This document shows, piece after piece, positions 6,033 to 45,105 of a stretch of DNA of 64,000 nucleotides. The stretch is from a virus (lineage: Duplodnaviria; Caudoviricetes). The stretch covers positions 1 through 64,000 of IMG/VR virus record IMGVR_UViG_2866360957_000001; one strand, given 5' to 3'. Position 1 is the stretch's first letter. Each line of letters starts with the position of its first letter. The notes beneath the pieces are model-generated. The model did no database searches. It saw nothing but the letters and a program-made list of their open reading frames with translations, and was not told the DNA's origin. A program made the translations under genes and the position numbers.

Positions 6033-6358
6033 ACCTCGTGCTCGAAACTCGCGACCAGCCCAATAGGACCGTGCACGTTGGCGCGGTTGCCCTGACGCCT
6101 GCGATCGACGAGGACTACTGGGCGTACCGTGTCCGGCTCGGTGAGCGCCAGGCGATCGTGGGGTTCCCGAAGTTCGGGACCATCGGCATCGGCTTCGCCG
6201 TCGAGGAGGACTGGAACGCCAATCTCCCCTACACCTGCGACGCCGAGAGGATCTACAACCACATCGCACACAACAAGGGCGATGACGACATCAGCGGTGA
6301 GGACTGCCTGACAGCGATCCGGATGATCCAGGATGCGGTCAAGGCGGAGCGAGCGTGA
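6029..6358 (+). CDS. Hypothetical protein
   Basis: ATGA coupling. Confidence 0.7.
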   Translation: MNLVLETRDQPNRTVHVGAVALTPAIDEDYWAYRVRLGERQAIVGFPKFGTIGIGFAVEEDWNANLPYTCDAERIYNHIAHNKGDDDISGEDCLTAIRMIQDAVKAERA

Positions 6359-7407
6359 TGAGCGACCTCATCACCCCGACCGCGCGCCTCCTGGCGCCGT
6401 CCGGCCTGCCGCGTGACGAATGGCTCGACGTCCGCCGCCAAGGCATCGGCGGCTCGGACGTCGCCGCGATCCTCGGCATGGACAAGCGGCGTGGGCCGCT
6501 GCACGTCTACCTCGACAAGCGTGGTGAACTGCGCGAAGAGCGCGATGCCAAGCTCGATCGGGCTGCGCGGCGCGGTCACCGCCTCGAAGGGCTCGTGGCC
6601 GAGTTCTTCGCCGAGGAGACCGGCCGGATCGTGCTCAACACTCCCGGAACGCTCCAGCACGCCGAGCACCCGTGGATGCTCGCCAACCCTGACCGGATCA
6701 GCTTCGCCGACAGCAACTTCGCGGATCCGGCCGTACTGGAGTGCAAGAGCCGAACCTGGCGGAGCGCGCGCGCCGAGGACTGGGGTGGTGACGAGCCGCC
6801 CGATGGTCCCGCCCTCCAGGCGTATTGGTACCGCGCCGTCACCGGCTACGGCAAGGCGCACGTCGCGGGCCTGGTCGATGACGACTTCGTGCACTTCGAG
6901 CTCGCCGACGACACCGAGCTCATCGGCCACCTCGTGACGCTGGTCGCCGACTTCTGGCGCGACCATGTGGAGGCCGGCATCCCACCGGAGCCCGGCGATC
7001 TGGAGAGCACTGACGAACTGCTGGGGCGGCTGTGGGACGCCACTGCGGACTCGTTCCGCCTCTTCAATCCAGAGGAGAGCAAGGCGGCCGACGCGCTTCT
7101 CGCCCGGCGCGCCGAGGTCGTCGCTGAGCGGAGGGCGCTGGAGCGCGAACTCGGCGCGATTGAGAACAAGCTCAAGGCCCGGCTCGGTGACGCTGAGATC
7201 GCCCTCGCCCCCGGCCGAGAGCTCTACTCCTGGAAGCGCAACGGCAACTTCGCCTACAAGCGGTTCCGGCAGGCATATCCCGACCTGGCGCGCGAGTACA
7301 CCCGTACGGCCAAGGCGATCGATGGCGAGCGCTTGGCCGCGGAGCAACCAGAAATTCACCGGCGCTTTCGCGCCCGCGTCTTCCGAGTTCCAGGGGGAAC
7401 CGTATGA
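6355..7407 (+). CDS. YqaJ-like viral recombinase exonuclease (lambda-exo/RecE type)
   Basis: WLDVRRQGIGGSDVAAILG, GHRLEG, PWMLANPDR, LECKS, QAYWY. Confidence 0.93.
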   Translation: MMSDLITPTARLLAPSGLPRDEWLDVRRQGIGGSDVAAILGMDKRRGPLHVYLDKRGELREERDAKLDRAARRGHRLEGLVAEFFAEETGRIVLNTPGTLQHAEHPWMLANPDRISFADSNFADPAVLECKSRTWRSARAEDWGGDEPPDGPALQAYWYRAVTGYGKAHVAGLVDDDFVHFELADDTELIGHLVTLVADFWRDHVEAGIPPEPGDLESTDELLGRLWDATADSFRLFNPEESKAADALLARRAEVVAERRALERELGAIENKLKARLGDAEIALAPGRELYSWKRNGNFAYKRFRQAYPDLAREYTRTAKAIDGERLAAEQPEIHRRFRARVFRVPGGTV

Positions 7408-8366
7408 GCAACCTCGGCCAACGAGTGGCCAACCGCGCCCAGGGCGGTCAGCGTCGCACCGGCAACGCCGTCGAGCTCCAGAAGAAGAAGGTCGCCACCG
7501 CGCGGCAGCTCTTCCAGCAGATGCGGCCTCAGTTCGCCGTGGCGCTGCCTCAGCATGTGAGCGTTGATCGATTCCTGCGCATGGCGCTCACGGCCGTCCA
7601 GAAGACGCCGAAGCTCCTCGACTGCACGCAGGAGTCCCTTCTCGCCGCGTTGCTGGAGTCTGCCCGCCTGGGACTGGAGCCCGGAACCAAGCAGGCCGCC
7701 ATCGTGCCGTACGGCAAGACCGCCACGTTCATCGCGCAGTGGCAGGGCCTGGTGGAACTGATGTACCGCTCCGGCCAGGTCATGTCGGTCACCGCAGAGT
7801 TCATCCACGAGAACGACCCGTGGAAATACCGGATCGGCGACGGCGGCACCTTCTGGCACGAGCCCGACGTGCTTTCCGGCGAGCGCGGGCCGATCGTCCT
7901 CGCCTACGCCTACGCCGAGATCAAGGGCGGCGGCCGATCGAAGATCGTGACGCTCAATCGCGGCGAGGCCGAGTTCGTCCGGGACAGGTACAGCAAGGCG
8001 TACGCCCTCGCCGAGCAGCATCGCCGCGAGGAGCCTGACGAGTTCGCCCGCGTCCCTGACAAGGGGTGGTTTAACTCGACCTGGCACACCGAATTCGACG
8101 CGATGTGGCGTAAGAGCGCCGTCCGCCGCCTCGCGGACTGGGTGCCGCAGAGCCCGGAGCTGGTGGAGCTGTTGCAGCGCGAGAACCCGGCCGGAGAGAG
8201 CGAGCCCCCGGAGGTCGATTTCGACTTCGACGGCGAGGTCGTCTCCGAGACCGAGGAACCCTATACACCTGATGGAGACCAGGCTGGTGCGCGGTCCGAC
8301 GTTGACGAGGCCGACTGGCCCCCGGTCGTCAGGCCCGGCTCGGGAGGCGGCACCGATGCCTCGTGA
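7404..8366 (+). CDS. recT: RecT-family single-strand annealing protein
   Basis: ALPQHVSVDRFLRMALTAVQKTPKLLDCTQESLL...LGLEP...IVPY; W.TEFDAMWRKSAVRRL; acidic tail; next to exonuclease. Confidence 0.93.
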   Translation: MSNLGQRVANRAQGGQRRTGNAVELQKKKVATARQLFQQMRPQFAVALPQHVSVDRFLRMALTAVQKTPKLLDCTQESLLAALLESARLGLEPGTKQAAIVPYGKTATFIAQWQGLVELMYRSGQVMSVTAEFIHENDPWKYRIGDGGTFWHEPDVLSGERGPIVLAYAYAEIKGGGRSKIVTLNRGEAEFVRDRYSKAYALAEQHRREEPDEFARVPDKGWFNSTWHTEFDAMWRKSAVRRLADWVPQSPELVELLQRENPAGESEPPEVDFDFDGEVVSETEEPYTPDGDQAGARSDVDEADWPPVVRPGSGGGTDAS

Positions 8367-8981: not shown

Positions 8982-9179
8982 CCGAGAAGCAGATCGTCAT
9001 CATCGCTGGCCGCCGCCACGCGCTGGCCGCCGCCCGCAGTCTGCGAGGCGAGCCGTGATCCGCCTGCTGATCGCGCTGGACCAGTGGCTGAGCGCCAGCC
9101 GGTGGCGCGTCCCCGCTGTCATGGTCACCGCTGCGGCGGCCACGGTCGTGCTTGCCGTGGCGCTCACCGAGGTCCTGAC

Positions 9180-9512
9180 ATGAGTGGCCTGCGCATGACC
9201 GTGACCTGGGAGTTTTCGGACGGTCCTGCTGAGAAGGCCCTGGCGCTCGCCGAACGCTGGCTCGCCGAGCAGCTCGGCGAGGGCACGCCGCCGCCGCGCC
9301 CGGTCCGCGTCGAGTGCCAGAGCATCACCACGACCCGGCCGAGCGTGCTGACGGCGCGCCGCCAGGCGCTCGGGCTCACCGTCCGCCAGCTCGCCGCCCG
9401 TGCCCGCATCGACCCGCAGGTGATCGCAGCGGCCGAGAACGGTGCGCTCGCGCCCGGCACGGCCGGTTACTCCAGGGTCTCCGCAGTCCTCACCGACCTG
9501 GAAGCCCGATGA
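9180..9512 (+). CDS. XRE HTH protein
   Basis: LTARRQALGLTVRQLAARARIDPQVIAAAENG. Confidence 0.8.
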   Translation: MSGLRMTVTWEFSDGPAEKALALAERWLAEQLGEGTPPPRPVRVECQSITTTRPSVLTARRQALGLTVRQLAARARIDPQVIAAAENGALAPGTAGYSRVSAVLTDLEAR

Positions 9513-9788: not shown

Positions 9789-9810
9789 CTCAGCTCAGCG
9801 GAGGTGTGCG

Positions 9811-10113
9811 ATGAGACTGCGTGACCGGTACGGCGCGTACGGCACGAGCACGGAGACGACGACTTCGTGGCAGCAGCGAGGGATCTGCTGGGGCCACGAG
9901 GACCCGGATTTGTGGTTCCCGTCTGTCGCCGACTTCAAGGGTTACCGGGACGCAGGGCATGCCGCCTATTCCGACGCCCGCGTGATCTGTGCTCGCTGCC
10001 CGGTGTGGCGGCAGTGCCGGGAGTACGCCCTGGAGGCGGGCGAGGAAGACGGCATGTGGGGCGGCCTGACACCTCGGGAGCGCCGTGCCATCAGGCAGAG
10101 CCGAGCGGCCTGA
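9811..10113 (+). CDS. whiB: WhiB-family Fe-S transcription regulator
   Basis: C...DPDLWFP...ICARCPVWRQCREYAL...GMWGGLTPRERR. Confidence 0.93.
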   Translation: MRLRDRYGAYGTSTETTTSWQQRGICWGHEDPDLWFPSVADFKGYRDAGHAAYSDARVICARCPVWRQCREYALEAGEEDGMWGGLTPRERRAIRQSRAA

Positions 10114-10142: not shown

Positions 10143-11486
10143 GTGCGTGTGGGGCTGATTGCGGTAGATCCGTTCACCTGGCGGCGGCTGATCCGGCGGG
10201 TCCGCCTCGGCTCGCCCGCGACGAAGCTGGTCGCCTCGATCCTGGCCGACTACGCCAGCCCGGACGGAAGGGACGTGCGGCCGGGCATCGAGCGGCTGGC
10301 GCTGGTGACGGAGCTGAGCGAGCGGTCCGTACGGCGAGCGCTCGACACCCTGCGGGCGCTGGGGCTGATCGAGCGGGTGCGCGAAGGCAGCCGCCAGGGG
10401 CGGCGAGCGCTGGCGGACGAGTACCGGCTGACGTTCCCTGACGACCTGGAGCGACGGGTGCTGATGCTCGGCCCCGACGAAAAGCCTCTGGTTCCTGTGG
10501 ATAACCACCGATCTCCGGTCACCATGTCCGCCGATCAGGCCCCATCCAGAGATTCACCGCCCGATGAACACCGGACATCTGATACCCGATCACCGGACAT
10601 GAGCGACCGGATCACCGGACACCATGTCCGCCCACCTAATCAGGACCTAACCACCCACCAACCAGAACTCATCTCTTCGCCGTACAGGGCTGAGGTGGAA
10701 GGGGTCCGGCCACGCGCCGCGCCTGTGGAAAACCCGAATTCGATCACGAGAGGAGGACGCCGTGCAGCCCGCAACCGACCCGATCGCCGAACAAGCCCGG
10801 CGCCTCACTGCGGCCTTCGTGCGCCGACTGACCGAGGAGGGCCACCGCGACCCCGGCCAGCTCGCCGCCGAACTCGTGGTGATGGCCCGGGGCCACGGCT
10901 GGCGTCCCGTCGCGGCGCTCCAGAAGCCTGCCGCGAACGGAGGTGGCAGCGAGCCGGACGAGGACTTCCGCGCCCAGCGTGCTGCGCTCGACCGTCGGCG
11001 GCCCTGCACCTGCGGCGATGGCGTACTGGACCACCGCCTCGACGGCCCGCGCCGTACCGACTGCTCGAAGTGCCCGTGCGTCCAGTACGCCCCGGTCCCG
11101 GAGAGGAGCGCATGATGCCGATCCGGCCCCAGGAGCGCCACCGGTACCCGGCCGACTGGCGGGCGATCAGCGACCGCATCCGGTTCGTCCGGGCGGGCGG
11201 CCGGTGCGAGTGCATGGGGGAGTGCGGCCACGACCACGGCGCCCGATGCACGGCGGTGCACGGCGAGCCGCACCCGGTCACCGGCTCGCGCGTGGTGCTC
11301 ACCACGGCGCACCGCAACCACCGGCCCGAGGACTGCGCCGATGACAACCTCGCGGCCTGGTGCCAGCGGTGCCACCTCGCCTACGACGCCGAGCACCACG
11401 CGGCCACCGCCGCCCGCACGCGCGAGGCCCGCCGTACGGCAGGCATGAGCGCGCTATTCACGATCCCCGAGAGGAGTACACGATGA
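10143..11486 (+). CDS. Winged-HTH replication initiator; frame has no stop and runs into the HNH gene
   Basis: KLVASILADYASPDG..VRPGIERLALVTELSERSVRRALDTLRALGLIER; internal iterons. Confidence 0.7.
   Translation: MRVGLIAVDPFTWRRLIRRVRLGSPATKLVASILADYASPDGRDVRPGIERLALVTELSERSVRRALDTLRALGLIERVREGSRQGRRALADEYRLTFPDDLERRVLMLGPDEKPLVPVDNHRSPVTMSADQAPSRDSPPDEHRTSDTRSPDMSDRITGHHVRPPNQDLTTHQPELISSPYRAEVEGVRPRAAPVENPNSITRGGRRAARNRPDRRTSPAPHCGLRAPTDRGGPPRPRPARRRTRGDGPGPRLASRRGAPEACRERRWQRAGRGLPRPACCARPSAALHLRRWRTGPPPRRPAPYRLLEVPVRPVRPGPGEERMMPIRPQERHRYPADWRAISDRIRFVRAGGRCECMGECGHDHGARCTAVHGEPHPVTGSRVVLTTAHRNHRPEDCADDNLAAWCQRCHLAYDAEHHAATAARTREARRTAGMSALFTIPERSTR
10496..10732. promoter_or_regulatory. 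Putative phage replication origin (iterons plus DnaA boxes)
   Basis: CACCGGACA at 10569, 10591, 10613 (22-nt period); perfect DnaA box TGTGGATAA at 10496-10504 and a 1-mismatch box at 10724-10732. Confidence 0.75.
10762..11115 (+). CDS. Hypothetical protein with C-terminal Cys/His motif
   Basis: GAGGAGG RBS; CTCGD..LDH...CSKCPC. Confidence 0.7.
   Translation: MQPATDPIAEQARRLTAAFVRRLTEEGHRDPGQLAAELVVMARGHGWRPVAALQKPAANGGGSEPDEDFRAQRAALDRRRPCTCGDGVLDHRLDGPRRTDCSKCPCVQYAPVPERSA
11112..11486 (+). CDS. HNH-like endonuclease
   Basis: Own RBS; RAGGRCEC...VVLTTAHRNH.PEDC.DDNL.AWCQRCHLAYD. Confidence 0.85.
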   Translation: MMPIRPQERHRYPADWRAISDRIRFVRAGGRCECMGECGHDHGARCTAVHGEPHPVTGSRVVLTTAHRNHRPEDCADDNLAAWCQRCHLAYDAEHHAATAARTREARRTAGMSALFTIPERSTR

Positions 11487-12088
11487 CCCCGCCGACTCCA
11501 CTGCGGCTCGCGGGCAGGCCCACACAGGGCGGCCTGGTGGTGCCATGGATCTCCGTCCACCACGCCGACGGACGCGCCACGCTCGGCGCGGTCCACGGCT
11601 CTCGGGTGGACACCTGCCTGCGCGGCCGACGCTGCCAGACGTGCGGCGAACACCTCGGCGATCGCCTGGTGGTGCTGGTCCGGCCGCAGGACATGACCGA
11701 CAGGTACACGGCCGAGCCCGCGATGCACCCGGAGTGCGCGGCGTACTCGATCGCCGCCTGCCCGATGACCAACGGCCAGATGGACCATTACCGCCCGACG
11801 CCGCGTCACCTGGCCGGGCGGTCCTGCGACATCCCGGGCTGTGACTGCGCCGGGTGGGTGGCCGCTGAAGATGCGACGGCGCGCCGGAACGCTCCAGCCG
11901 AGCCCTATTACGCCGTGTGGCTGCGGCTGACGGACTACAGGCTCGCGACCGATCGCACGGGGAAGCTGCTCGGCATCGCGCTGGCAATCAGGCCGCTGAA
12001 GATGCGACGAGTCGGTTCCGGCGAGCCAACCCCCGAGCAGGCGGCGCTCGCCCTGCTGCTGGACATGCCCGGGGACGGTGCATCGTGA
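11483..12088 (+). CDS. Hypothetical Zn-binding phage protein
   Basis: CQTCG, EPAMHPECAAYS..ACP. Confidence 0.75.
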   Translation: MTPPTPLRLAGRPTQGGLVVPWISVHHADGRATLGAVHGSRVDTCLRGRRCQTCGEHLGDRLVVLVRPQDMTDRYTAEPAMHPECAAYSIAACPMTNGQMDHYRPTPRHLAGRSCDIPGCDCAGWVAAEDATARRNAPAEPYYAVWLRLTDYRLATDRTGKLLGIALAIRPLKMRRVGSGEPTPEQAALALLLDMPGDGAS

Positions 12089-13173
12089 GCAACCCGGTTG
12101 ACGATGTCGCCTACACCCGGCCGATGATCAAGGCGTTGCGCGGGCACGTGGATGCCTTCGCCGAGTCCATGGCGGGCGCGCGGTCCGCTCATGGCGCGCT
12201 GGAGCGGGTACGGCCGTGTGCAGTCGCCTGGGTGTACTTCTCCACGCTGGTGGCCTGGGCAGAGGATCACGGCCTTGTCGATCCCTGGCTTCGAGCGGAG
12301 GCGAAGGGGCGGCGCGAGCTGTACGCGCCGCCACAGGCCGGCGGCATGCTCGGGTGGCTCGCCCGCGCGTACGCCTCGTTGTGCGTGCATCCGGCGACGT
12401 GGTGCCTGCTCGACCCCCGGTACTCCCAGCTTCGCGAGCACGACCCGAGCGAGCAGGTCTGCCGCGATCTCGTGGACTGGTGGACGGGCGACGCGCCGTC
12501 GCTGGCCTACGAGACCACGACCGGCCCGGCGTCGATTTCCGGGTGGATCGTCGGCGACCTTCTCCAGGCGCTGTCTACCGAGCGAGTCAAGGCGTTCGCG
12601 TTCGCGCAGACGCCGTGGTGGGTCGCCGACGGGATCACCGACTTGACCTTGATCCCGGCCTGTGACGAGTTTCGCGACGAGCCGGTGGTCCGCACGATCG
12701 ACGCGACGTGCGGGACCGGGCACTTCCTGGTACGGAAGATCGACTACCTGTGGGAGTGGTACACCACCGGCGAAGTCCACCCTCGGCAGATGCAGCCTGG
12801 AGGGGAGCCGGACAGCCGGGTTCGCCCGGCGACCGGTGGACCGCGCCTTGAGCCGGCTGAGGCGATCCGGCGCATCATCGCCGGGGTGGACGGCTGCGAG
12901 ATCGATCCGCTCACCGCGGCCGTCGCCCGCCTGCGGGTCGTCGTGGCCATCGGCGAGCTGATGCATCGTTCCGCCTTGATCCCGGCCCTGCGGCTCGACG
13001 GGATCCCGCCGTTCCAGCCGCGCATCGTCGTCGGCGACTCGCTGCTCGCGGGCAGGATTTCGGCGGCGGAGTACGCCAAGGTGCATCCCGAGCTCGCCGA
13101 GATCACCAACCTCGGCATTCCTGATGAGCGCTCCGCTCGGTCGGTTCAGCTCGCCATCGGCGGTGGAACGTGA
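12085..13173 (+). CDS. PglX (BREX-2)-like adenine methyltransferase N-terminal half; SAM motif present, catalytic NPPY motif absent
   Basis: AVAWV...EDHGLV; GDLLQALS..RVK.FA.AQTP; IDATCGTGHFL; GCEIDPLTAAVARLR; VGDSLL, then stop about 40 aa later. Confidence 0.75.
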   Translation: MSNPVDDVAYTRPMIKALRGHVDAFAESMAGARSAHGALERVRPCAVAWVYFSTLVAWAEDHGLVDPWLRAEAKGRRELYAPPQAGGMLGWLARAYASLCVHPATWCLLDPRYSQLREHDPSEQVCRDLVDWWTGDAPSLAYETTTGPASISGWIVGDLLQALSTERVKAFAFAQTPWWVADGITDLTLIPACDEFRDEPVVRTIDATCGTGHFLVRKIDYLWEWYTTGEVHPRQMQPGGEPDSRVRPATGGPRLEPAEAIRRIIAGVDGCEIDPLTAAVARLRVVVAIGELMHRSALIPALRLDGIPPFQPRIVVGDSLLAGRISAAEYAKVHPELAEITNLGIPDERSARSVQLAIGGGT

Positions 13174-13445
13174 TCGACGTCACCGCCCTGCGCGTACACC
13201 TGGACGCGCTGTTGCCGCTCGCCGTCGCCGACCTGCGTCGCCACGGCCACACACGCGATGAGCTCACGGCGATGGCGGCCCGCTGCGGCAAGGAGTTCAG
13301 CCACCTGGGCGATGCCGCGCAGTGGCCTGCCCGAAGCAGCGGGGAAGCGCTAGGCGCACTGCTCACGGGCCTGGCCGCCGCCGAACTCGTCAACCCGGGG
13401 ACCGGCCACCAGATGATCGCACTACTCGACAGGAGAGGGGCATGA
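13170..13445 (+). CDS. Hypothetical protein
   Basis: GTGA coupling. Confidence 0.6.
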   Translation: MIDVTALRVHLDALLPLAVADLRRHGHTRDELTAMAARCGKEFSHLGDAAQWPARSSGEALGALLTGLAAAELVNPGTGHQMIALLDRRGA

Positions 13446-13927
13446 CGGCCCCGCTGATCACTCTCACCGTCCGGGGCGAGCCCGCGGGCCAGGGCAACCT
13501 CAAAGGCACCGCTGGCGGCAAGCTCCGTCACGCCAACGGCCGCGACCTGCACGACTGGCGGGGCCGGGTGCGGGGGGCCGCGCTGGACCTGCTCGGCGCG
13601 CACGAGTACGCGGCGCTCGGCAAGAGCGGCGTGTGCGCGCTGTGCAGCGTCCCTAAGACCCAGCACGCCGAGCTGCTCGGCGCGGTCCGCCTGGAGGCCG
13701 TGGTCACCGTGGCCCGGCCGAAGACGGCGCGCTCCAACTGGCCGATCACCCGTTCATCGAGCGACTGGGATCACTACGGCCGTGCGATCGGCGACGCTCT
13801 GACCGGCGTGACGTACCTCGACGACTCACAGGTGGTCGATGGGCGTTGCATCACCACCTATCCGTACGTCCACGAACTCGCGCTCGGTGAGCCCGGCGCG
13901 GTGATACGGCTCTGGGCAGTGACGTAA
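13442..13927 (+). CDS. rusA: RusA-like Holliday junction resolvase
   Basis: VRGEPAGQG...DWDHYGRAIGDALTGVTYLDDSQVV. Confidence 0.88.
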   Translation: MTAPLITLTVRGEPAGQGNLKGTAGGKLRHANGRDLHDWRGRVRGAALDLLGAHEYAALGKSGVCALCSVPKTQHAELLGAVRLEAVVTVARPKTARSNWPITRSSSDWDHYGRAIGDALTGVTYLDDSQVVDGRCITTYPYVHELALGEPGAVIRLWAVT

Positions 13928-14430
13928 TGGTCGCCATCGAGCGCGCCACCGCCGTGCCGTACCCGAAAGGCGGGCCGCCGGCATGCCGTGAGCACGATCC
14001 CGAGCTGTGGTTCCCGCCGCACGATGACCGCTTCGCGCGGCAAATCTGCGCCGGATGCCCGCTGGCCAGATCCTGCCGAGAGCACGCCCTCGCCTACGAC
14101 TTGTACGGCATCTGGGGCGGCACGTCCCGCCGCGAGCGTGAGACCCACTGGCGGGAGCGCGGAATCCGGCCGCTGCCTGCCTACGTGCACAAGGACGTTG
14201 CTGAGCCGTCGCCTCAGCCCCGGCCCCGGAAGCGGCCCGCGCGCCCCGCGGCCGACGTTGTCCCCGACCCTCCACCCGTCGAGCAGGGGCCCAGCAAACG
14301 TTGCCCGCGCTGCCGGATGGTCCGGGCGCTCACCGACTACTACCCCAACGCGGCCAACCCGGACGGCCTGGCCGCCTGGTGCAAGCCATGTTTCCGAGAA
14401 ATCGCAGGAAGGGACGCCACTCGCCCATGA
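13927..14430 (+). CDS. whiB: Second WhiB-family protein with C-terminal Zn-finger
   Basis: ACREHDPELWFP...ICAGCPLARSCREHAL..GIWGG; CPRC...DGLAAWCKPC. Confidence 0.88.
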   Translation: MVAIERATAVPYPKGGPPACREHDPELWFPPHDDRFARQICAGCPLARSCREHALAYDLYGIWGGTSRRERETHWRERGIRPLPAYVHKDVAEPSPQPRPRKRPARPAADVVPDPPPVEQGPSKRCPRCRMVRALTDYYPNAANPDGLAAWCKPCFREIAGRDATRP

Positions 14431-29860: not shown

Positions 29861-30403
29861 ATGTACGAAGTCGGCGCAGAGGTCACCTACCAGGGCTCTA
29901 TCGAGCATCTTCACGGCCAGATCTTTACCGTCGTGGCGCACTGCTGCGGGGGAGAGCGCTACCGGCTCCAGGGCCGCAGCGAGGCTCTGCGCCACGCCCG
30001 CCCCGCCAGCGTCGCCCGCTACGCGGAGCCCATCGAGGCCCTTGCCGTCCTGGAGCGGGCCATCGCCGCAGAGCGCCCGGTGGTGATCACCTACATCGCG
30101 GCGGACGGCGAGTGGACGACCCGCACGATCGAGCCGTACGAGCTGGACGTCACCGCGCGCGGGCACCTGATCGTGCGCGCGATGGACCGGCTCAGGCGCG
30201 CGGAGCGCACCTTCCGCCTCGACCGGATCGACAGCCTTACGCAGTACCCCGGCGTGTTCCTGCTGACCGCCGCCCGCATGGAGCGTGACGCGCTGGCCCG
30301 TATCCGCGCCGAGATCGCCGAAGTCGCGTCGGCGGGCTTCGGCGGCTACGACGGCTACGGCGCGATGCGCTGGACCCCCGAGTGTCCTGTTCCCGCTCTT
30401 TGA
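29861..30403 (+). CDS. WYL-domain protein
   Basis: LERAIAAERPVVITY..ADGEWTTRTIEPY...RAMDRLRRAERTFRLDRI. Confidence 0.88.
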   Translation: MYEVGAEVTYQGSIEHLHGQIFTVVAHCCGGERYRLQGRSEALRHARPASVARYAEPIEALAVLERAIAAERPVVITYIAADGEWTTRTIEPYELDVTARGHLIVRAMDRLRRAERTFRLDRIDSLTQYPGVFLLTAARMERDALARIRAEIAEVASAGFGGYDGYGAMRWTPECPVPAL

Positions 30404-30458
30404 TCCCCACGCCGGGCGGCATCCGGCCGCCCGGCTCAACCCTCGAAGGGAATCCGCG

Positions 30459-31586
30459 ATGACCATCACCGACGTCAACGAACAGCTCTATCAGCAGCGG
30501 CGGACCGCGATCGAGTCCGGCCGGTGGACCCGCCGCGATGACGGCTCCTATGTCGCCTGGGACCGGGCCGAGGTCCTCGGGCGTGAGGGGCTGGACATGA
30601 CCACCGGGCAGGCCGCGCTCTACACCTCCACCCCCGCGTGGCACGGTCTCGGCAACGTCATCCCCGGCGGCATCTCCGACATCGACGAAGTGCTCCGCCT
30701 GGGCGGGATCGACTTCGACGTCGAAAAGCGCGACGTCCGGTACTCGTTCATGGGCGATGCCGACGCCGTGCCCGCGCTGCGCACCATGCCCGGCCAGTAC
30801 GTCACCGTCCGCTCCGACACGGGCGCGGCCCTCGGTGTCGTCGGCTCGCGTTACGAGGTCATCCAGAACCGCGAGCTGTTCACCTTCCTGGAAGACCTGG
30901 TGGATCAGCACGGCGTGATCTGGGAGTCGGCGGGCGCGCTGCGCGACGGACGGCGGGTATTCGTGTGCATGCGCCTGCCGGAGAACGTGATCATCGACCG
31001 GGGCGGCCTGGCCGACGAGATCGTCCTGATCCTCTCGGTGATCAACTCTCATGACGGGCGCGGCACGGCCGAGGCCGTCCCGTCCGGGTGGCGGATCGTC
31101 TGCGCCAACACCGAGCGGTTCGCCCTGCGCGACGCGGTGTCCCGTTGGAGCATCCGCCACACCTCCGGCGCGCTGGGGCGGATCGAAGAGGCACGCCGCG
31201 CCCTCGGCCTCACCGTTGAGTACGCCCACGCGTTCGAGGAGGAGGAGACCGCACTCGCGCGCACGGACATCGCCCTGGACGAGTTCCACCGCGTGATCGC
31301 CGACCTGTGGCCGGTGGACCGGGACGCGTCCGCGCGCACCACGGGCATGGCCGACCGCCGCCGCGAGACCCTGACCGCGATGTTCGAGGGCGAGTCGGTC
31401 CGCGTCGGCCGTACCGCTTATGCGGGGGAGCGGGCGATCACGGACTACCTCGACCACGTCGCGCCGCGCCGCCCCGGCAAGACCATGACGGAGGAGATCG
31501 CCCGGGCGACCGCGCTCATGGAAGGCGCGGACGACGCCATCAAGACCACGGCCCACAAGAGGCTCATGACCCTGGTCCGCCGCTGA
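30459..31586 (+). CDS. DUF932 family protein
   Basis: PAWHGLG, VRSDTG..LGVVGSRYEVIQN.E.F.F, ESAGALRDGRRVF, NSHDG, RIVCANT, IRHT. Confidence 0.9.
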   Translation: MTITDVNEQLYQQRRTAIESGRWTRRDDGSYVAWDRAEVLGREGLDMTTGQAALYTSTPAWHGLGNVIPGGISDIDEVLRLGGIDFDVEKRDVRYSFMGDADAVPALRTMPGQYVTVRSDTGAALGVVGSRYEVIQNRELFTFLEDLVDQHGVIWESAGALRDGRRVFVCMRLPENVIIDRGGLADEIVLILSVINSHDGRGTAEAVPSGWRIVCANTERFALRDAVSRWSIRHTSGALGRIEEARRALGLTVEYAHAFEEEETALARTDIALDEFHRVIADLWPVDRDASARTTGMADRRRETLTAMFEGESVRVGRTAYAGERAITDYLDHVAPRRPGKTMTEEIARATALMEGADDAIKTTAHKRLMTLVRR

Positions 31587-41080: not shown

Positions 41081-41304
41081 GCGAGCGACAGGCCCTGGAG
41101 GGCATCGTCGAGGGCCTGGTCGTGCGGTCTGGGGACACGCTGATTTTGCACCTGCCTGCCGACATGACGGCGGCGGACATGCAGCGGATCGCGGAGAACG
41201 TGAAGGATGGCCTGTGCCAGAAACTGCCTGACGTCGAGATCCTGATGGTGGCGGGCATCGAGCGGATCGCGGTGTACCGGCCGGGCGAGGACGCGCCGGC
41301 CTGA
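41077..41304 (+). CDS. Hypothetical protein
   Basis: GGAGG RBS, coupled at both ends. Confidence 0.6.
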   Translation: MSERQALEGIVEGLVVRSGDTLILHLPADMTAADMQRIAENVKDGLCQKLPDVEILMVAGIERIAVYRPGEDAPA

Positions 41305-42734
41305 TGGGCCTCCTGGAGCGGGTCTCGGCGCGGCACGCCGAGCGGTTTCGGCGACCCGCCGCTGAGAATCGGTTCGGCTGGGACGACTACCTCAATCTGT
41401 TCGAGCGCAACCCGTTCGGGCTGGGCTGGTTCCAGACGATCACCGGCTCCCAGGAGCGGATCGAGGGCCACTTCGAGGGCATCGTCAACCTCGGCTACAA
41501 GCGAAGCGGCGTGGTGTTCGCGTGCATCCTCGCGCGCCTCCTGGTCTTCAGCGAGGCGCGGTTCCAGTGGCGCGGCTTCAACCGCGGTCGGCCGGGGGCG
41601 CTGTTCGGCGCCCCGGAGTTGGCGTTGCTGGAGCGGCCGTGGCCGGGGGCGACGACCGGTGACCTGCTGGCCCGGATGGAGCAGGACTCGACGCTCGCGG
41701 GCGGCTTTTTCGCGACCCGGCGGGGCGGCCGGGGCGGGCAGGACCGGATCGTCCGGATGCGCCCGGACTGGGTGACCATCGTTCTCGGCTCGTACGAGGA
41801 CCCGGACTTGCAGGCGTTCGACCTGGACGCCGAGCTGATCGGCTACATCTACCAGCCGCCGGGCGGGCAGGCGGAGATCCTGCTGCCCGAGGAAGTCTGC
41901 CACTACGCGCCGGTGCCGGACCCGATCGCCTCCTACCGCGGCATGTCGCTGCTTCAGTCGGTGATCCGCGACATCGAGGGCGACCAGGCGGCCACCACCC
42001 ACAAGCTGCGCTTTTTCGAGCAGGGGGCGACCCCCAACATGGTGGTCACGATGGACTCGGCGGTGACGCCTGAGGCGTTCGCTCGCTTTAAGGCCGTCAT
42101 GGAGGCCGGTCACGCCGGGGCGCTCAACGCCTACAAGACCTTGTACCTGGGCGGCGGCGCCGACGTGAAGACCGTCGGCAACAGCTTCGAGCAGATGAGT
42201 TACAAGGCCATCCAGGCGCTGGGGGAGACGCGCGTGGCCGCGGCCATGGGCGTCCCGCCGGTCATCGTCGGCCTGTCCGAGGGGCTCTCATCTGCCACGT
42301 ACTCCAACTATTCGCAGGCCAGACGGCGTTTCGGCGACGGTACGTTGCGCCCGCTGTGGCGTAACGCGGCCGGGTCGCTGGCCAACCTGCTGCCGCCCCG
42401 GCCGGGCGCGGAGCTCTGGTACGACGACCGCGATGTGTCCTTCTTGCGGGAGGACCAGAAGGACGCGGCGCAGATCTTCTCCATCCAGGCGTCTACGATC
42501 GCGACGCTCGTCCGCGAAGGTTTTACACCCGAGTCGGCGACGGCGGCCTGCGCCGCCCAGGATTCCAGCCTGCTGGTGCACACCGGCCTGCTCAGCGTGC
42601 AGCTTCAGCCGCCCGGTACGAAATTCAACCAGCCGAACGGCTCCGGCCAGTCCGACGAGACCGAAGACGACCCCGAGGACGATGCCGCAGACGACGAAGG
42701 CACCGGCCCCGACGAGGAGGAAGAGCAGCCGTGA
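41304..42734 (+). CDS. HK97-family portal protein
   Basis: VFACI, RGMSLL, FFEQGATP, AAAMGVPPVIVG, TYSNY. Confidence 0.95.
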   Translation: MGLLERVSARHAERFRRPAAENRFGWDDYLNLFERNPFGLGWFQTITGSQERIEGHFEGIVNLGYKRSGVVFACILARLLVFSEARFQWRGFNRGRPGALFGAPELALLERPWPGATTGDLLARMEQDSTLAGGFFATRRGGRGGQDRIVRMRPDWVTIVLGSYEDPDLQAFDLDAELIGYIYQPPGGQAEILLPEEVCHYAPVPDPIASYRGMSLLQSVIRDIEGDQAATTHKLRFFEQGATPNMVVTMDSAVTPEAFARFKAVMEAGHAGALNAYKTLYLGGGADVKTVGNSFEQMSYKAIQALGETRVAAAMGVPPVIVGLSEGLSSATYSNYSQARRRFGDGTLRPLWRNAAGSLANLLPPRPGAELWYDDRDVSFLREDQKDAAQIFSIQASTIATLVREGFTPESATAACAAQDSSLLVHTGLLSVQLQPPGTKFNQPNGSGQSDETEDDPEDDAADDEGTGPDEEEEQP

Positions 42735-43642
42735 AGCATCTGATCACCGTGCGGGCGAACGCCGCGCCCGTCAGCCTCCATCCGCGGGCCGCCGCAGAAC
42801 CCGAAGGACTGGACTCCACTCCCGCCGCCGAGGCCCGCGCTGAGAGCACGGGGGAGCAGGTCATGGTGTTGCGCTTCTCGGCGTTCGGCGTGTGGTACGA
42901 GATCAACTCCTGGTACGAGGGCCGCTATCTGGAGCGCGTCCTGCCCGGCGCGTTCGCCAAGACCATTCAGGAGCGCGGCGACCGGGTGAAGATCTTCTTC
43001 AACCACGGCTACGACTACCAGATCGACCAGAAGATCCTCGGCGTGCCCGAGCTGCTGGAGGAGCGCACCGACGGCGTGTGGGCCGAGGTCCCGCTGCTCG
43101 ACACCTCCTACAACCGCGACCTGATCCCGGGCCTGCGCGCCGGCGGGTATGGCAGCAGCTTCATGTTCAACGTGCTGGACGAGCTGTGGAATCACGAGCC
43201 CGGCGAGTCCGAGCACAACCCGGAGGGCCTGCCCGAGCGCAGCATCCTTCAGGTCCGTCTCTTCGAGGCCGGGCCGGTCACCTGGCCGGCGTCGCACGCG
43301 GCGACCGCCGGGATGAGGTCCGTCGCCGGGCTCACCGACTGGTACGGCGAGCAGCTCCGCACCCGCGACTCGGGCCGCCACGACGCGCTCGTGCGCGGCT
43401 TCACCGACTTCCGTGCCCAGCACGGACTCCGCACCTCCGAAAGCGAGGCCGTCCCGCCCGCCGCCGACCCGCAGCAGGTCGCCGACGAACGGCAGGACAC
43501 CGCGCCGGACGAGGCCGCGACCACCCCGACCGACGCGCCGGACACCCTGGTAGTGCACCACGCGGCAGGTCTCACCCATTCGCAGCGCGCCGCCCGACTG
43601 CGGGCGCAGCGCTATTCGTTCCTGACCAGGGAGGCGTCCTGA
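42731..43642 (+). CDS. HK97-family prohead protease
   Basis: ERVLPGAFAKTI, FFNHG, GSSFMF, LFEAGPVTWPA. Confidence 0.93.
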   Translation: MKHLITVRANAAPVSLHPRAAAEPEGLDSTPAAEARAESTGEQVMVLRFSAFGVWYEINSWYEGRYLERVLPGAFAKTIQERGDRVKIFFNHGYDYQIDQKILGVPELLEERTDGVWAEVPLLDTSYNRDLIPGLRAGGYGSSFMFNVLDELWNHEPGESEHNPEGLPERSILQVRLFEAGPVTWPASHAATAGMRSVAGLTDWYGEQLRTRDSGRHDALVRGFTDFRAQHGLRTSESEAVPPAADPQQVADERQDTAPDEAATTPTDAPDTLVVHHAAGLTHSQRAARLRAQRYSFLTREAS

Positions 43643-45105
43643 TGGACGAGATCCTGCGCAGGCTCGGTGAGATCGAGACCGAGATGCGTGAAATGCACGA
43701 GGCCGCTGGCGATGCGGCGTTCACCGAAGAGCAGCAGGCCCGCTGGGCCGAGCTGGAGGAGCAGCGTGCCGAGCAGCTCCGGCTCCAGGAGGAGGAGCGC
43801 GCCCGCCAGGCCGACCTGGACCGGCGGCGCAGCGCGGTCGCCGGGTTCGCCGCGCGCGGCACCACCGAGGCCGGGGACGGCAACCTCGACGTGCGTGGCG
43901 TGCAGGTGATGCAGCGCGTTGACCCGTGGGACGGCGCCGACGTGCGGGCCCTGCCGGACCTGAAGGCGCGCGACAAGGCGCTGAAGGCGCTGGAGGACCG
44001 TGACCTGACGGCGCACACCAGCGACGAGCAGCTCGCGCGGGCCATCAAGGTCCTGCGCACCCGCACCCGGGACTGCAACGGCGCGTACGTCGCCCGCCGC
44101 ATGCTGCTGACCGAGAACGAGCACTACCGGTCGGCGTTCATGAAGTTGATCATGCGCGCCCACCCCGTGCTCACTCCCGAAGAGCAGCACGCCGTCGAGG
44201 CGTACGAGGAGTACCGGGCCATGTCGATCGGCAGCGACCCGGGCGGCGGCTTCGGCGTCCCGGTGCTGATCGACCCGACGATCATCCTGACGGCGCAGGG
44301 CAGCCCGAACGACATCCTCAACCTTGCGCGCGTCGAGACGATCACCAACGACGAATGGAAGGGCGTCACCAGCGCGGGCGTGTCCTGGTCGTTCGACCCG
44401 GAGTCGGCCGAAGTGTCGGACGACAGCCCGACGCTGGCACAGCCCACAGTGCCAACGCACAAGGCGCAGGGCTACCTCCCGTACACCATCGAGGTCGGGA
44501 TGGACTACCCCGGTTTCGCGACGGAGATGAACGCACTCCTCGATGAGGGCTACCGGGAGCTGCTAGCGCAGACCCTCACCACCGGGTCGGGCGTCAACGC
44601 GCCGACCGGCATCGTGACCGCGCTCGACGCGAACACCAACGTCGAGGTCGCCGTCACCACGGATGGCGCGTTCGGCGGTGCGGACATCTACAAGCTGTGG
44701 GACGCGCTGCCGATCAAGTACCGCAACCGGATGCCGAATTGGATGTCGTCCACGGATGTCATGAACGAGGTCAGGCAGTTCGGCTCCGGCGGGTCCGGCG
44801 GCTCGAACTTCTCGGTCAACCTGACGCAGGAGTCGATCCCGCGGCTGTTCGGGAAGCCGTACTACGAGAACGACTTCATGGACGACTTCACCGCTACGAC
44901 CGGCGCCGCGAACCTGCTGATCGTGGGCGACTTCCAGAACTACCTGGTCGCCCAGCGCGCGGGGATGAGCGTCGAGCTCGTGCCGCATGTGTTCGGCACC
45001 ACGAACAACCGGCCGATCGGCCAGCGCGCCTGGTACGCCTGGGCCCGCGTCGGTGCCGACTCGATCAACGACGCCGGGTTCCGCATCCTCCAGAACATCG
45101 CGTAA
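43642..45105 (+). CDS. HK97-family major capsid protein
   Basis: N-terminal coiled delta domain, GGFGVP, GSGVNAPTGI, LFGKP, IVGDF..Y. Confidence 0.95.
   Translation: MDEILRRLGEIETEMREMHEAAGDAAFTEEQQARWAELEEQRAEQLRLQEEERARQADLDRRRSAVAGFAARGTTEAGDGNLDVRGVQVMQRVDPWDGADVRALPDLKARDKALKALEDRDLTAHTSDEQLARAIKVLRTRTRDCNGAYVARRMLLTENEHYRSAFMKLIMRAHPVLTPEEQHAVEAYEEYRAMSIGSDPGGGFGVPVLIDPTIILTAQGSPNDILNLARVETITNDEWKGVTSAGVSWSFDPESAEVSDDSPTLAQPTVPTHKAQGYLPYTIEVGMDYPGFATEMNALLDEGYRELLAQTLTTGSGVNAPTGIVTALDANTNVEVAVTTDGAFGGADIYKLWDALPIKYRNRMPNWMSSTDVMNEVRQFGSGGSGGSNFSVNLTQESIPRLFGKPYYENDFMDDFTATTGAANLLIVGDFQNYLVAQRAGMSVELVPHVFGTTNNRPIGQRAWYAWARVGADSINDAGFRILQNIA

Follow-up and report, generated by a model that had tools for sequence, protein, structure and literature searches.

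The gene at 12085..13173 (plus strand) in a 64,000-nucleotide stretch of viral DNA – positions 1 to 64,000 of IMG/VR record IMGVR_UViG_2866360957_000001, hereafter the window – codes for mini-PglX, a 362-aa protein that is a folded, selected and non-catalytic front part of the methyltransferase PglX of type 2 bacteriophage exclusion (BREX-2), also termed phage growth limitation (Pgl). The assignment draws on translation (GTG start, TGA stop) and on profile and family comparison, and the gene is placed in the early replication/recombination region of a temperate actinomycete phage. Tentatively, we favour a reading in which mini-PglX would be a non-catalytic mimic of PglX, dominant-negative against BREX-2/Pgl, and would in most members of its family be brought to replicating phage DNA by a C-terminal tail resembling a sliding clamp-binding motif. 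For work on how BREX, especially the Pgl/BREX-2 system of Streptomyces, arrests phages, a phage-selected fragment with exactly the N-terminal domain and the S-adenosylmethionine (SAM) pocket would mark the part of PglX that matters for protein-protein contacts and provide a simple tool for probing assembly of the BREX complex. The tail, in turn, suggests a contest between phage and BREX at the replication fork.

Mini-PglX corresponds to the front part of PglX

The original prediction, made from the letters of the window, likened this protein to the N-terminal half of PglX and proposed a profile hidden Markov model comparison as a check. That comparison upholds the likeness, with NCBIfam model BREX_2_MTaseX (NF033451) matching aa 26-328 at E 1.1e-35 and the PADLOC PglX model matching at E 1.8e-37; 'half' has to be reduced to the front quarter to third, since the NF033451 match extends over profile positions 40-323 of 1185. 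The score of 122.7 bits is below the curated cut-off of 400 bits for this model, and the BREX-6 and BREX-1 models reach E values of 0.04-0.12, as against 1.1e-35 for NF033451. PADLOC returned matches to PglX or methyltransferase models alone. No family was found in Pfam or PHROGs at E up to 1 (including the N6_Mtase and Eco57I models), a sequence profile search of the PDB gave nothing at E up to 0.01, and INPHARED contains neither a DNA nor a tblastn match, and no isolated phage with the gene.

An AlphaFold2 (AF2) model computed from an alignment of 100 family sequences has a mean predicted local distance difference test score (pLDDT) of 93.9 and a predicted template modelling score (pTM) of 0.91. 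Its N-terminal domain is helical, three strands (at 204-206, 268-272 and 313-316) and two closing helices follow, and the tail is modelled with low confidence. Foldseek searches of the PDB and BFVD with this model gave weak methyltransferase rows only. Pairwise alignment with VIA-align to the PglX/BrxX proteins of Salmonella and E. coli (8q56, 8c45 and 9ewz) gives Z scores of 12.8-12.9 over 278-284 residues, with a root-mean-square deviation of 3.9-4.1, and pairs model residues 3-344 with chain residues 1-495. The first 150 residues (12085..12534, with AF2 helices across 8-135) make up a helical domain homologous to the N-terminal domain of PglX/BrxX, and aa 151-347 (12535..13125) make up the SAM-binding half of a methyltransferase fold, with motif X, strands b1-b3 and the two closing helices. 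The same N-terminal helical bundle and Rossmann start are seen in HsdM and in type IIG/ISP gamma-class N6-adenine methyltransferases (Z 10.6-13.6 for structures including MmeI, 5HR4, LlaBIII, 4XQK, and the PacII M subunit, 7VS4, the last at 13.6 with VIA-align); unlike mini-PglX, these enzymes are complete.

The translation contains, in order, CAVAWVYFSTL, GDLLQALSTERVKAFAFAQTPWW, IDATCGTGHFL, GCEIDPLTAAVARLR and VGDSLL, and mini-PglX shares with BREX-2/Pgl PglX (NF033451) and its type 1 relatives (8C45, 8Q56, 9EWZ) the helical N-terminal domain together with motifs X, I, II and III. Motif I is IDATCGTGHFL (aa 205-215, 12697..12729), in which D206, G210, G212 and H213 are invariant among the 100 sequences; motif II is GCEIDP (aa 270-275, 12892..12909), with G270 invariant, E or D at 272 and D274 nearly invariant (at least 90%); and motif III is VGDSLL (aa 316-321, 13030..13047), with D318 invariant.

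The protein ends 41 residues past VGDSLL, and the earlier statement that it stops before the catalytic motif and has no target-recognition domain stands: the pattern [NDS]PP[YFW] is absent from mini-PglX and from all 100 aligned family members, and the profile match goes no further than position 323. Among full-length relatives (at least 1100 aa), NPPY is present in 46 of 49, about 50 aa past GDSLL. The model has three strands, not the seven and the catalytic loop of a complete Rossmann-like fold, and the 362 residues, compared with about 1200 in PglX, leave out NPPY, strands b4-b7 and the target-recognition and C-terminal domains. Mini-PglX is therefore predicted to be unable to methylate DNA. 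The catalytic loop may nonetheless persist as a degenerate vestige, HPxL, rather than having been cut off: YAKVHPEL (aa 330-337, 13072..13095), tentatively a remnant of b4 and motif IV, is placed opposite Y..VVGNPPY of full-length PglX by one MAFFT alignment, which comprised 100 short and 48 full-length sequences, and is modelled by AF2 as a helix.

A conserved family of short proteins

A homologue search restricted to proteins of 199-634 aa gave 223 matches, and the 120 of them that are listed are 272-422 aa long and 50-77% identical to mini-PglX, apart from the window's own record (P0002, 100%). Named sources among the matches listed are Streptosporangium, Sphaerisporangium, Actinomadura, Glycomyces, Micromonospora and Streptomyces. 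When HMMER was run with no restriction on length, short representatives scored 226-366 bits and the scores then fell to about 88 bits (36% identity), first for mid-length entries and then for PglX proteins of 1150-1320 aa; the exception to this drop is a set of fragments of fewer than 250 aa, with 54-66% identity and 93-159 bits.

A tree was built from 82 sequences: 30 of the 100 short members, picked by hand to give a spread, four from a second short subclade, and 48 full-length proteins, the forty-ninth (2165 aa) being left out. A branch about 2 changes per site long, with 100% support in the Shimodaira-Hasegawa-like approximate likelihood ratio test (SH-aLRT), separates all of the short forms from the full-length proteins. 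Supports of 98 and 97 place the second subclade (L013, L014, L033 and P0126) as sister to the NPPY-less clade; its proteins are about 390-400 aa long, retain GNPPY along with some of motif V, show GNALL where others have GDSLL, and end in a linker. A putative history that fits this arrangement has PglX truncated once, anciently, and the main clade losing NPPY afterwards. The original prediction was to fall if the closest homologues were full-length and this copy a unique truncation; the 120 listed homologues and the fully supported branch show the opposite, and its judgement that the gene is not a product of random decay agrees with the existence of a conserved short family.

Purifying selection and a shared endpoint had been proposed as further checks. 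The endpoint is shared, and for the two closest gene pairs the ratio of nonsynonymous to synonymous substitution rates (dN/dS) is 0.26 and 0.25 at dS of about 0.2, with both halves of the protein below 0.36. The median over all 300 gene pairs, at 0.60 and with many values near 1, gives no clean sign of strong constraint. We attribute the high values of distant pairs to saturation of synonymous sites, G+C at third codon positions being about 85-90%; pairwise dN/dS over distant pairs was rejected as unusable for this reason, and only the two close pairs count. The same residue is found at a frequency of at least 80% in both short and full-length forms at 48 alignment columns, which include positions in the N-terminal domain besides the SAM motifs, and a further 46 columns are conserved in the short family only and 27 in PglX only. 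This comparison of columns shows a shared core together with what appears to be clear functional divergence between short forms and PglX.

Decay from a full-length pglX, of phage or host, would account for the truncation of the gene and for the decayed tail motif of the window copy described below. The conserved family with its common endpoint, the confidently predicted fold, the dN/dS of about 0.25 in close pairs, the intact frame and the coupling to both neighbours all speak against decay, and we give this explanation next to no chance.

A different type of open frame, of 1400-1650 aa, recurs in many related genomes (for example G000:C12:82529-82891, at locus L002) and aligns with the PglX profile only over its SAM motifs, at E of about 1e-13 to 1e-16. 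It probably represents a different large methyltransferase-containing protein. In the same genus as the window's host, a BREX-2 pglX is split into two adjacent frames (G143:C77:10584-14143) that match profile positions 2-547 and 561-1185.

A clamp-binding-like tail

Many family members continue past the conserved core with a variable Pro/Ala/Glu-rich linker and a terminal ...QLDLFGEVA. A strict form of this motif, Q[LM][DSGENPT][LM][FL], occurs within the last 25 aa of 43 of the 100 members and never in their remaining 34,245 residues, and is present in the last 25 residues of just one of 380 neighbouring open reading frames (ORFs) of the same loci. A relaxed form, Qxx[LM][FL], is found in 67 of 100 members, compared with 2 of the 380 control ORFs. 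No full-length PglX has the motif at its C-terminus (0/49; two have chance internal matches), which sets most relatives of mini-PglX apart from the full-length proteins. The tails of the sister subclade carry QLDLF or QLSLF (L013, L033, P0126) or a weaker QDALF-like sequence (L014), and because it is present in both sister clades the motif is probably ancestral.

Clients of the beta sliding clamp – polymerases, MutS and actinobacterial NucS/EndoMS – have a disordered linker and a terminal Q-L-D/S-L-F, as do the 43 family members with the strict motif. The beta-clamp-binding consensus is given as QL[S/D]LF, with positions 1, 4 and 5 essential (bioRxiv 10.64898/2026.05.27.728225), and NucS of actinobacteria uses a C-terminal clamp motif (PMC6159521). 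By this resemblance, the QLDLF-type tail of relatives would be expected to bind the beta sliding clamp, whether that of the host or one that is phage-borne, and to dock the protein there.

The window copy differs from these clients. Its tail (aa 348-362, 13126..13170) is short and modelled with low confidence (pLDDT 51-48 in the last blocks), and reads ...RSVQLAIGGGT where its relative P0110 has ...RSVQLDLFGGAA. QLAIG (aa 355-359, 13147..13161) is the decayed counterpart of the family's QLDLF: it keeps Q at position 1 and lacks both the L at position 4 and the aromatic F at position 5 that clamp clients have. Position 5 being Gly, clamp docking, which for the family is predicted from the motif, has very probably been lost in the window copy. 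Alignment of the DNA at this 3' end with three related loci (L020, L021 and L003) did not resolve how the motif was lost.

Genomic location and related loci

The window is part of a prophage, as indicated by phage portal and capsid genes at 41304..45105 (plus strand), and lies in contig C1 of a 9.8 Mb host genome assembled in 77 contigs with an estimated completeness of 100%. Mini-PglX is encoded in the early region of this prophage and not in an operon with pglZ, pglY/brxC and pglW; it is phage-borne and has none of pglZ, pglY or pglW adjoining it, unlike BREX-2 PglX. The claimed coupling of the gene to both neighbours is correct, its GTG start (12085-12087) overlapping the upstream TGA stop (12086-12088) as GTGA and its own TGA stop (13171-13173) overlapping the downstream GTG start (13170-13172) likewise as GTGA. 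The upstream neighbour is a Cys-rich gene of 201 aa (11483..12088) and the downstream neighbour a gene of 91 aa (13170..13445), both on the plus strand and both with no Pfam family. The wider context comprises a YqaJ exonuclease and RecT recombinase that form an early recombination module (6355..8366, plus strand), a helix-turn-helix protein (9084-9512), a first WhiB-like gene (9790-10113), an HTH_36 protein (from 10143), a RusA resolvase (13442-13927, plus strand) and a second WhiB-like gene (13927-14430, plus strand).

Gene order was compared across 27 related loci, being 12 IMG/VR contigs and 15 genome loci with close relatives. The family gene alone is common to all 27 and its neighbours are mosaic, so that conserved synteny was rejected. 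Homologues of the upstream Cys-rich gene are found at two of the loci (L008, directly upstream, and L031), and the downstream 91-aa gene has no match at any of the 27. In L003 and L012 the family gene has, one or two genes upstream, a complete phage-borne dnaN with three Pfam clamp domains, and in L009 dnaN is three called ORFs (about 3.5 kb) upstream; dnaB is near the family gene in L009, L012 and L014. These dnaN and dnaB neighbours provide independent support for a link to the clamp. The three phage clamp genes (L003:4272-5543, L009:1217-2509 and L012:3943-5082) are 47-67% identical to each other, and the L012 clamp is about 55-58% identical to host DnaN. At four loci the gene is adjoined by a protein of 214-337 aa with no Pfam match (L009:7029-7787, L012:7113-7757, L033:7168-8181 and L020:1678-2511), the C-terminal part of which looks like the helix-turn-helix of sigma-factor region 4.

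These loci also bear on whether mini-PglX is one half of a split methyltransferase with its catalytic and recognition subunit encoded apart, as the half sheet of three strands with an exposed edge in the AF2 model might suggest. The pattern [NDS]PP[YFW] occurs in none of the 91 called genes of the window, and the broader [NDS]PP[YFWH] occurs in 8 of 406 ORFs from 26 related loci and part of the window, three of which are members of the NPPY-containing subclade and five of which do not amount to a conserved partner. With mosaic neighbours and no conserved neighbour bearing a catalytic motif, a split-enzyme partner was rejected, and we consider this explanation barely credible.

Possible action against BREX-2/Pgl

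In the reading that we favour, mini-PglX would be made from the early replication/recombination operon of the phage and would copy the SAM-holding part of PglX that is thought to contact other BREX proteins. The clamp tail of most relatives would put the protein on the beta clamp, and hence on replicating phage DNA, where it would compete with host PglX for BREX partners at the fork; this competition would block modification or restriction of the phage DNA by BREX-2/Pgl. The window copy, with no clamp motif, would act untethered, if at all. SAM binding, clamp binding and an effect on BREX-2/Pgl are our inferences.

Several observations on PglX are relevant to this scheme. One proposal is that other BREX proteins contact PglX through its N-terminal domain (PMC12839542), SAM strengthens binding of BrxX to DNA (PMC11842806), and BREX defence is reported to need SAM (bioRxiv 10.1101/2023.02.27.530186). 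With Y381A in its NPPY motif, PglX of S. coelicolor loses both Pgl resistance and activity, and a genetic interaction links PglX to PglZ (PMC4365076). BREX-2 PglX is, besides, common in the host groups: it scores over the cut-off in 29 of 151 genomes belonging to the window's family (including an unpublished genome, G125, with no match) and in 27 of 121 from the family to which G158 belongs, and 6 of 15 other genomes carrying the short gene have it in full length.

A number of points weigh against such a role. In the genome of the lysogen, at 100% completeness, neither a full-length BREX-2 PglX nor a PglZ domain was found, and the other 9 of the 15 carrier genomes are also without full-length PglX. 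The excess among carriers (6 of 16 with the window genome, over a background of about 20%) is mild, the genomes are related, and we attach no statistical weight to it. The gene lies among replication and recombination genes with no obvious anti-defence cluster, and at the 27 related loci it has no constant companion. The relaxed clamp motif is absent from 33 of 100 members, including the window copy. Short forms and full-length PglX are only about 33-36% identical and separated by a very long branch, and the median dN/dS is high. Residues nearly invariant in PglX are replaced in the short family (R57 to A, T153/R154 to G/W, Y160 to L and N274 to D), and these replacements speak against a faithful copy of a surface for partners. 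Nor does the literature covered establish where on PglX the other BREX proteins bind.

Some of these points are equally well taken as favouring an accessory protein of the replication fork unrelated to BREX, in which an exapted front end of PglX, perhaps a SAM-sensing or docking module tethered to the clamp, would help or time replication, recombination or clamp-coupled transcription. Placement with YqaJ, RecT, HTH_36, RusA and WhiB genes in the window, the dnaN and dnaB neighbours at several related loci, the enrichment of the clamp motif, the long branch with family-specific replacement of PglX-invariant residues, the BREX-free lysogen and the putative sigma region 4 neighbour at four loci all point in this direction, and phage Mu is described as using the clamp for late transcription (PMC12867686). 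Conserved SAM-contacting residues would be unexplained in a pure adaptor, the mosaic neighbours include no evident fixed partner gene, and a third of the members are without the clamp motif. We know of no replication factor with the architecture of mini-PglX, which also counts against a fork role, but we regard this role as nearly as likely as the reading that we favour; if true, it would mean that phages have exapted a fragment of a defence gene.

Prophages in many genomes of actinomycetes carry the gene, and it might serve the lysogen as a protective or regulatory factor, either as a decoy trapping the anti-BREX inhibitors of other phages or in superinfection exclusion. For systems related to BREX, it has been proposed that inactive domains act as decoys that phage inhibitors bind (PMC12839542). 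Co-orientation and translational coupling with early lytic genes, away from any typical lysogeny or moron position, and the limitation of PADLOC hits to PglX and methyltransferase models make this improbable. The original prediction also raised sequestration of SAM, by which the protein would act as a sponge starving SAM-dependent defences. The SAM-binding motifs are indeed conserved, but we expect that a 1:1 binder would be needed in very large amounts to deplete SAM, the SAM-directed counter-defence of T3 is enzymatic cleavage (bioRxiv 10.1101/2023.02.27.530186), and a sponge would need neither a conserved N-terminal domain nor a clamp tail; we consider it very improbable.

Mini-PglX resembles T7 Ocr, the T3 SAM lyase and ICP1 OrbA in being phage-encoded and expressed early, and a common target is possible. 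OrbA is an anti-BREX protein that binds BrxC, Ocr is a DNA mimic and the T3 protein an enzyme, none of them derived from a BREX component, in which they differ from mini-PglX. No inhibitor of type 2 was found in the BREX literature searched, and no description of a phage-borne truncated PglX or a clamp-tethered half-methylase in literature that excludes the supplementary tables of PMC12839542. It is conceivable, if doubtful, that mini-PglX inhibits BREX type 2/Pgl; it would then be the first such inhibitor, and also the first anti-defence protein to derive, by truncation, from the methyltransferase of the very defence that it opposes. As a dominant-negative subunit, delivered to the fork by the tail in most members, it would keep the BREX complex from marking or blocking new phage DNA.

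Other features of the prophage

The two WhiB-like genes border the replication/recombination block of the prophage. Within this block, the ORF at 10143-11486 has HTH_36 at its start and a Cys/His-rich, HNH-like end, a homologue of which is directly upstream of the family gene at one of the 27 related loci (L022). In the middle of this ORF (10762-11115) the codon-position G+C pattern prefers another frame, and 10143-11486 may be two genes or contain a frameshift. A tRNA scan of the window found none. A 433-aa DUF932 protein is encoded at 30285-31586 within the prophage, and between 34001 and 36000, where there are short ORFs only, the G+C content drops to 0.59, compared with 0.66-0.74 in the rest of the window.

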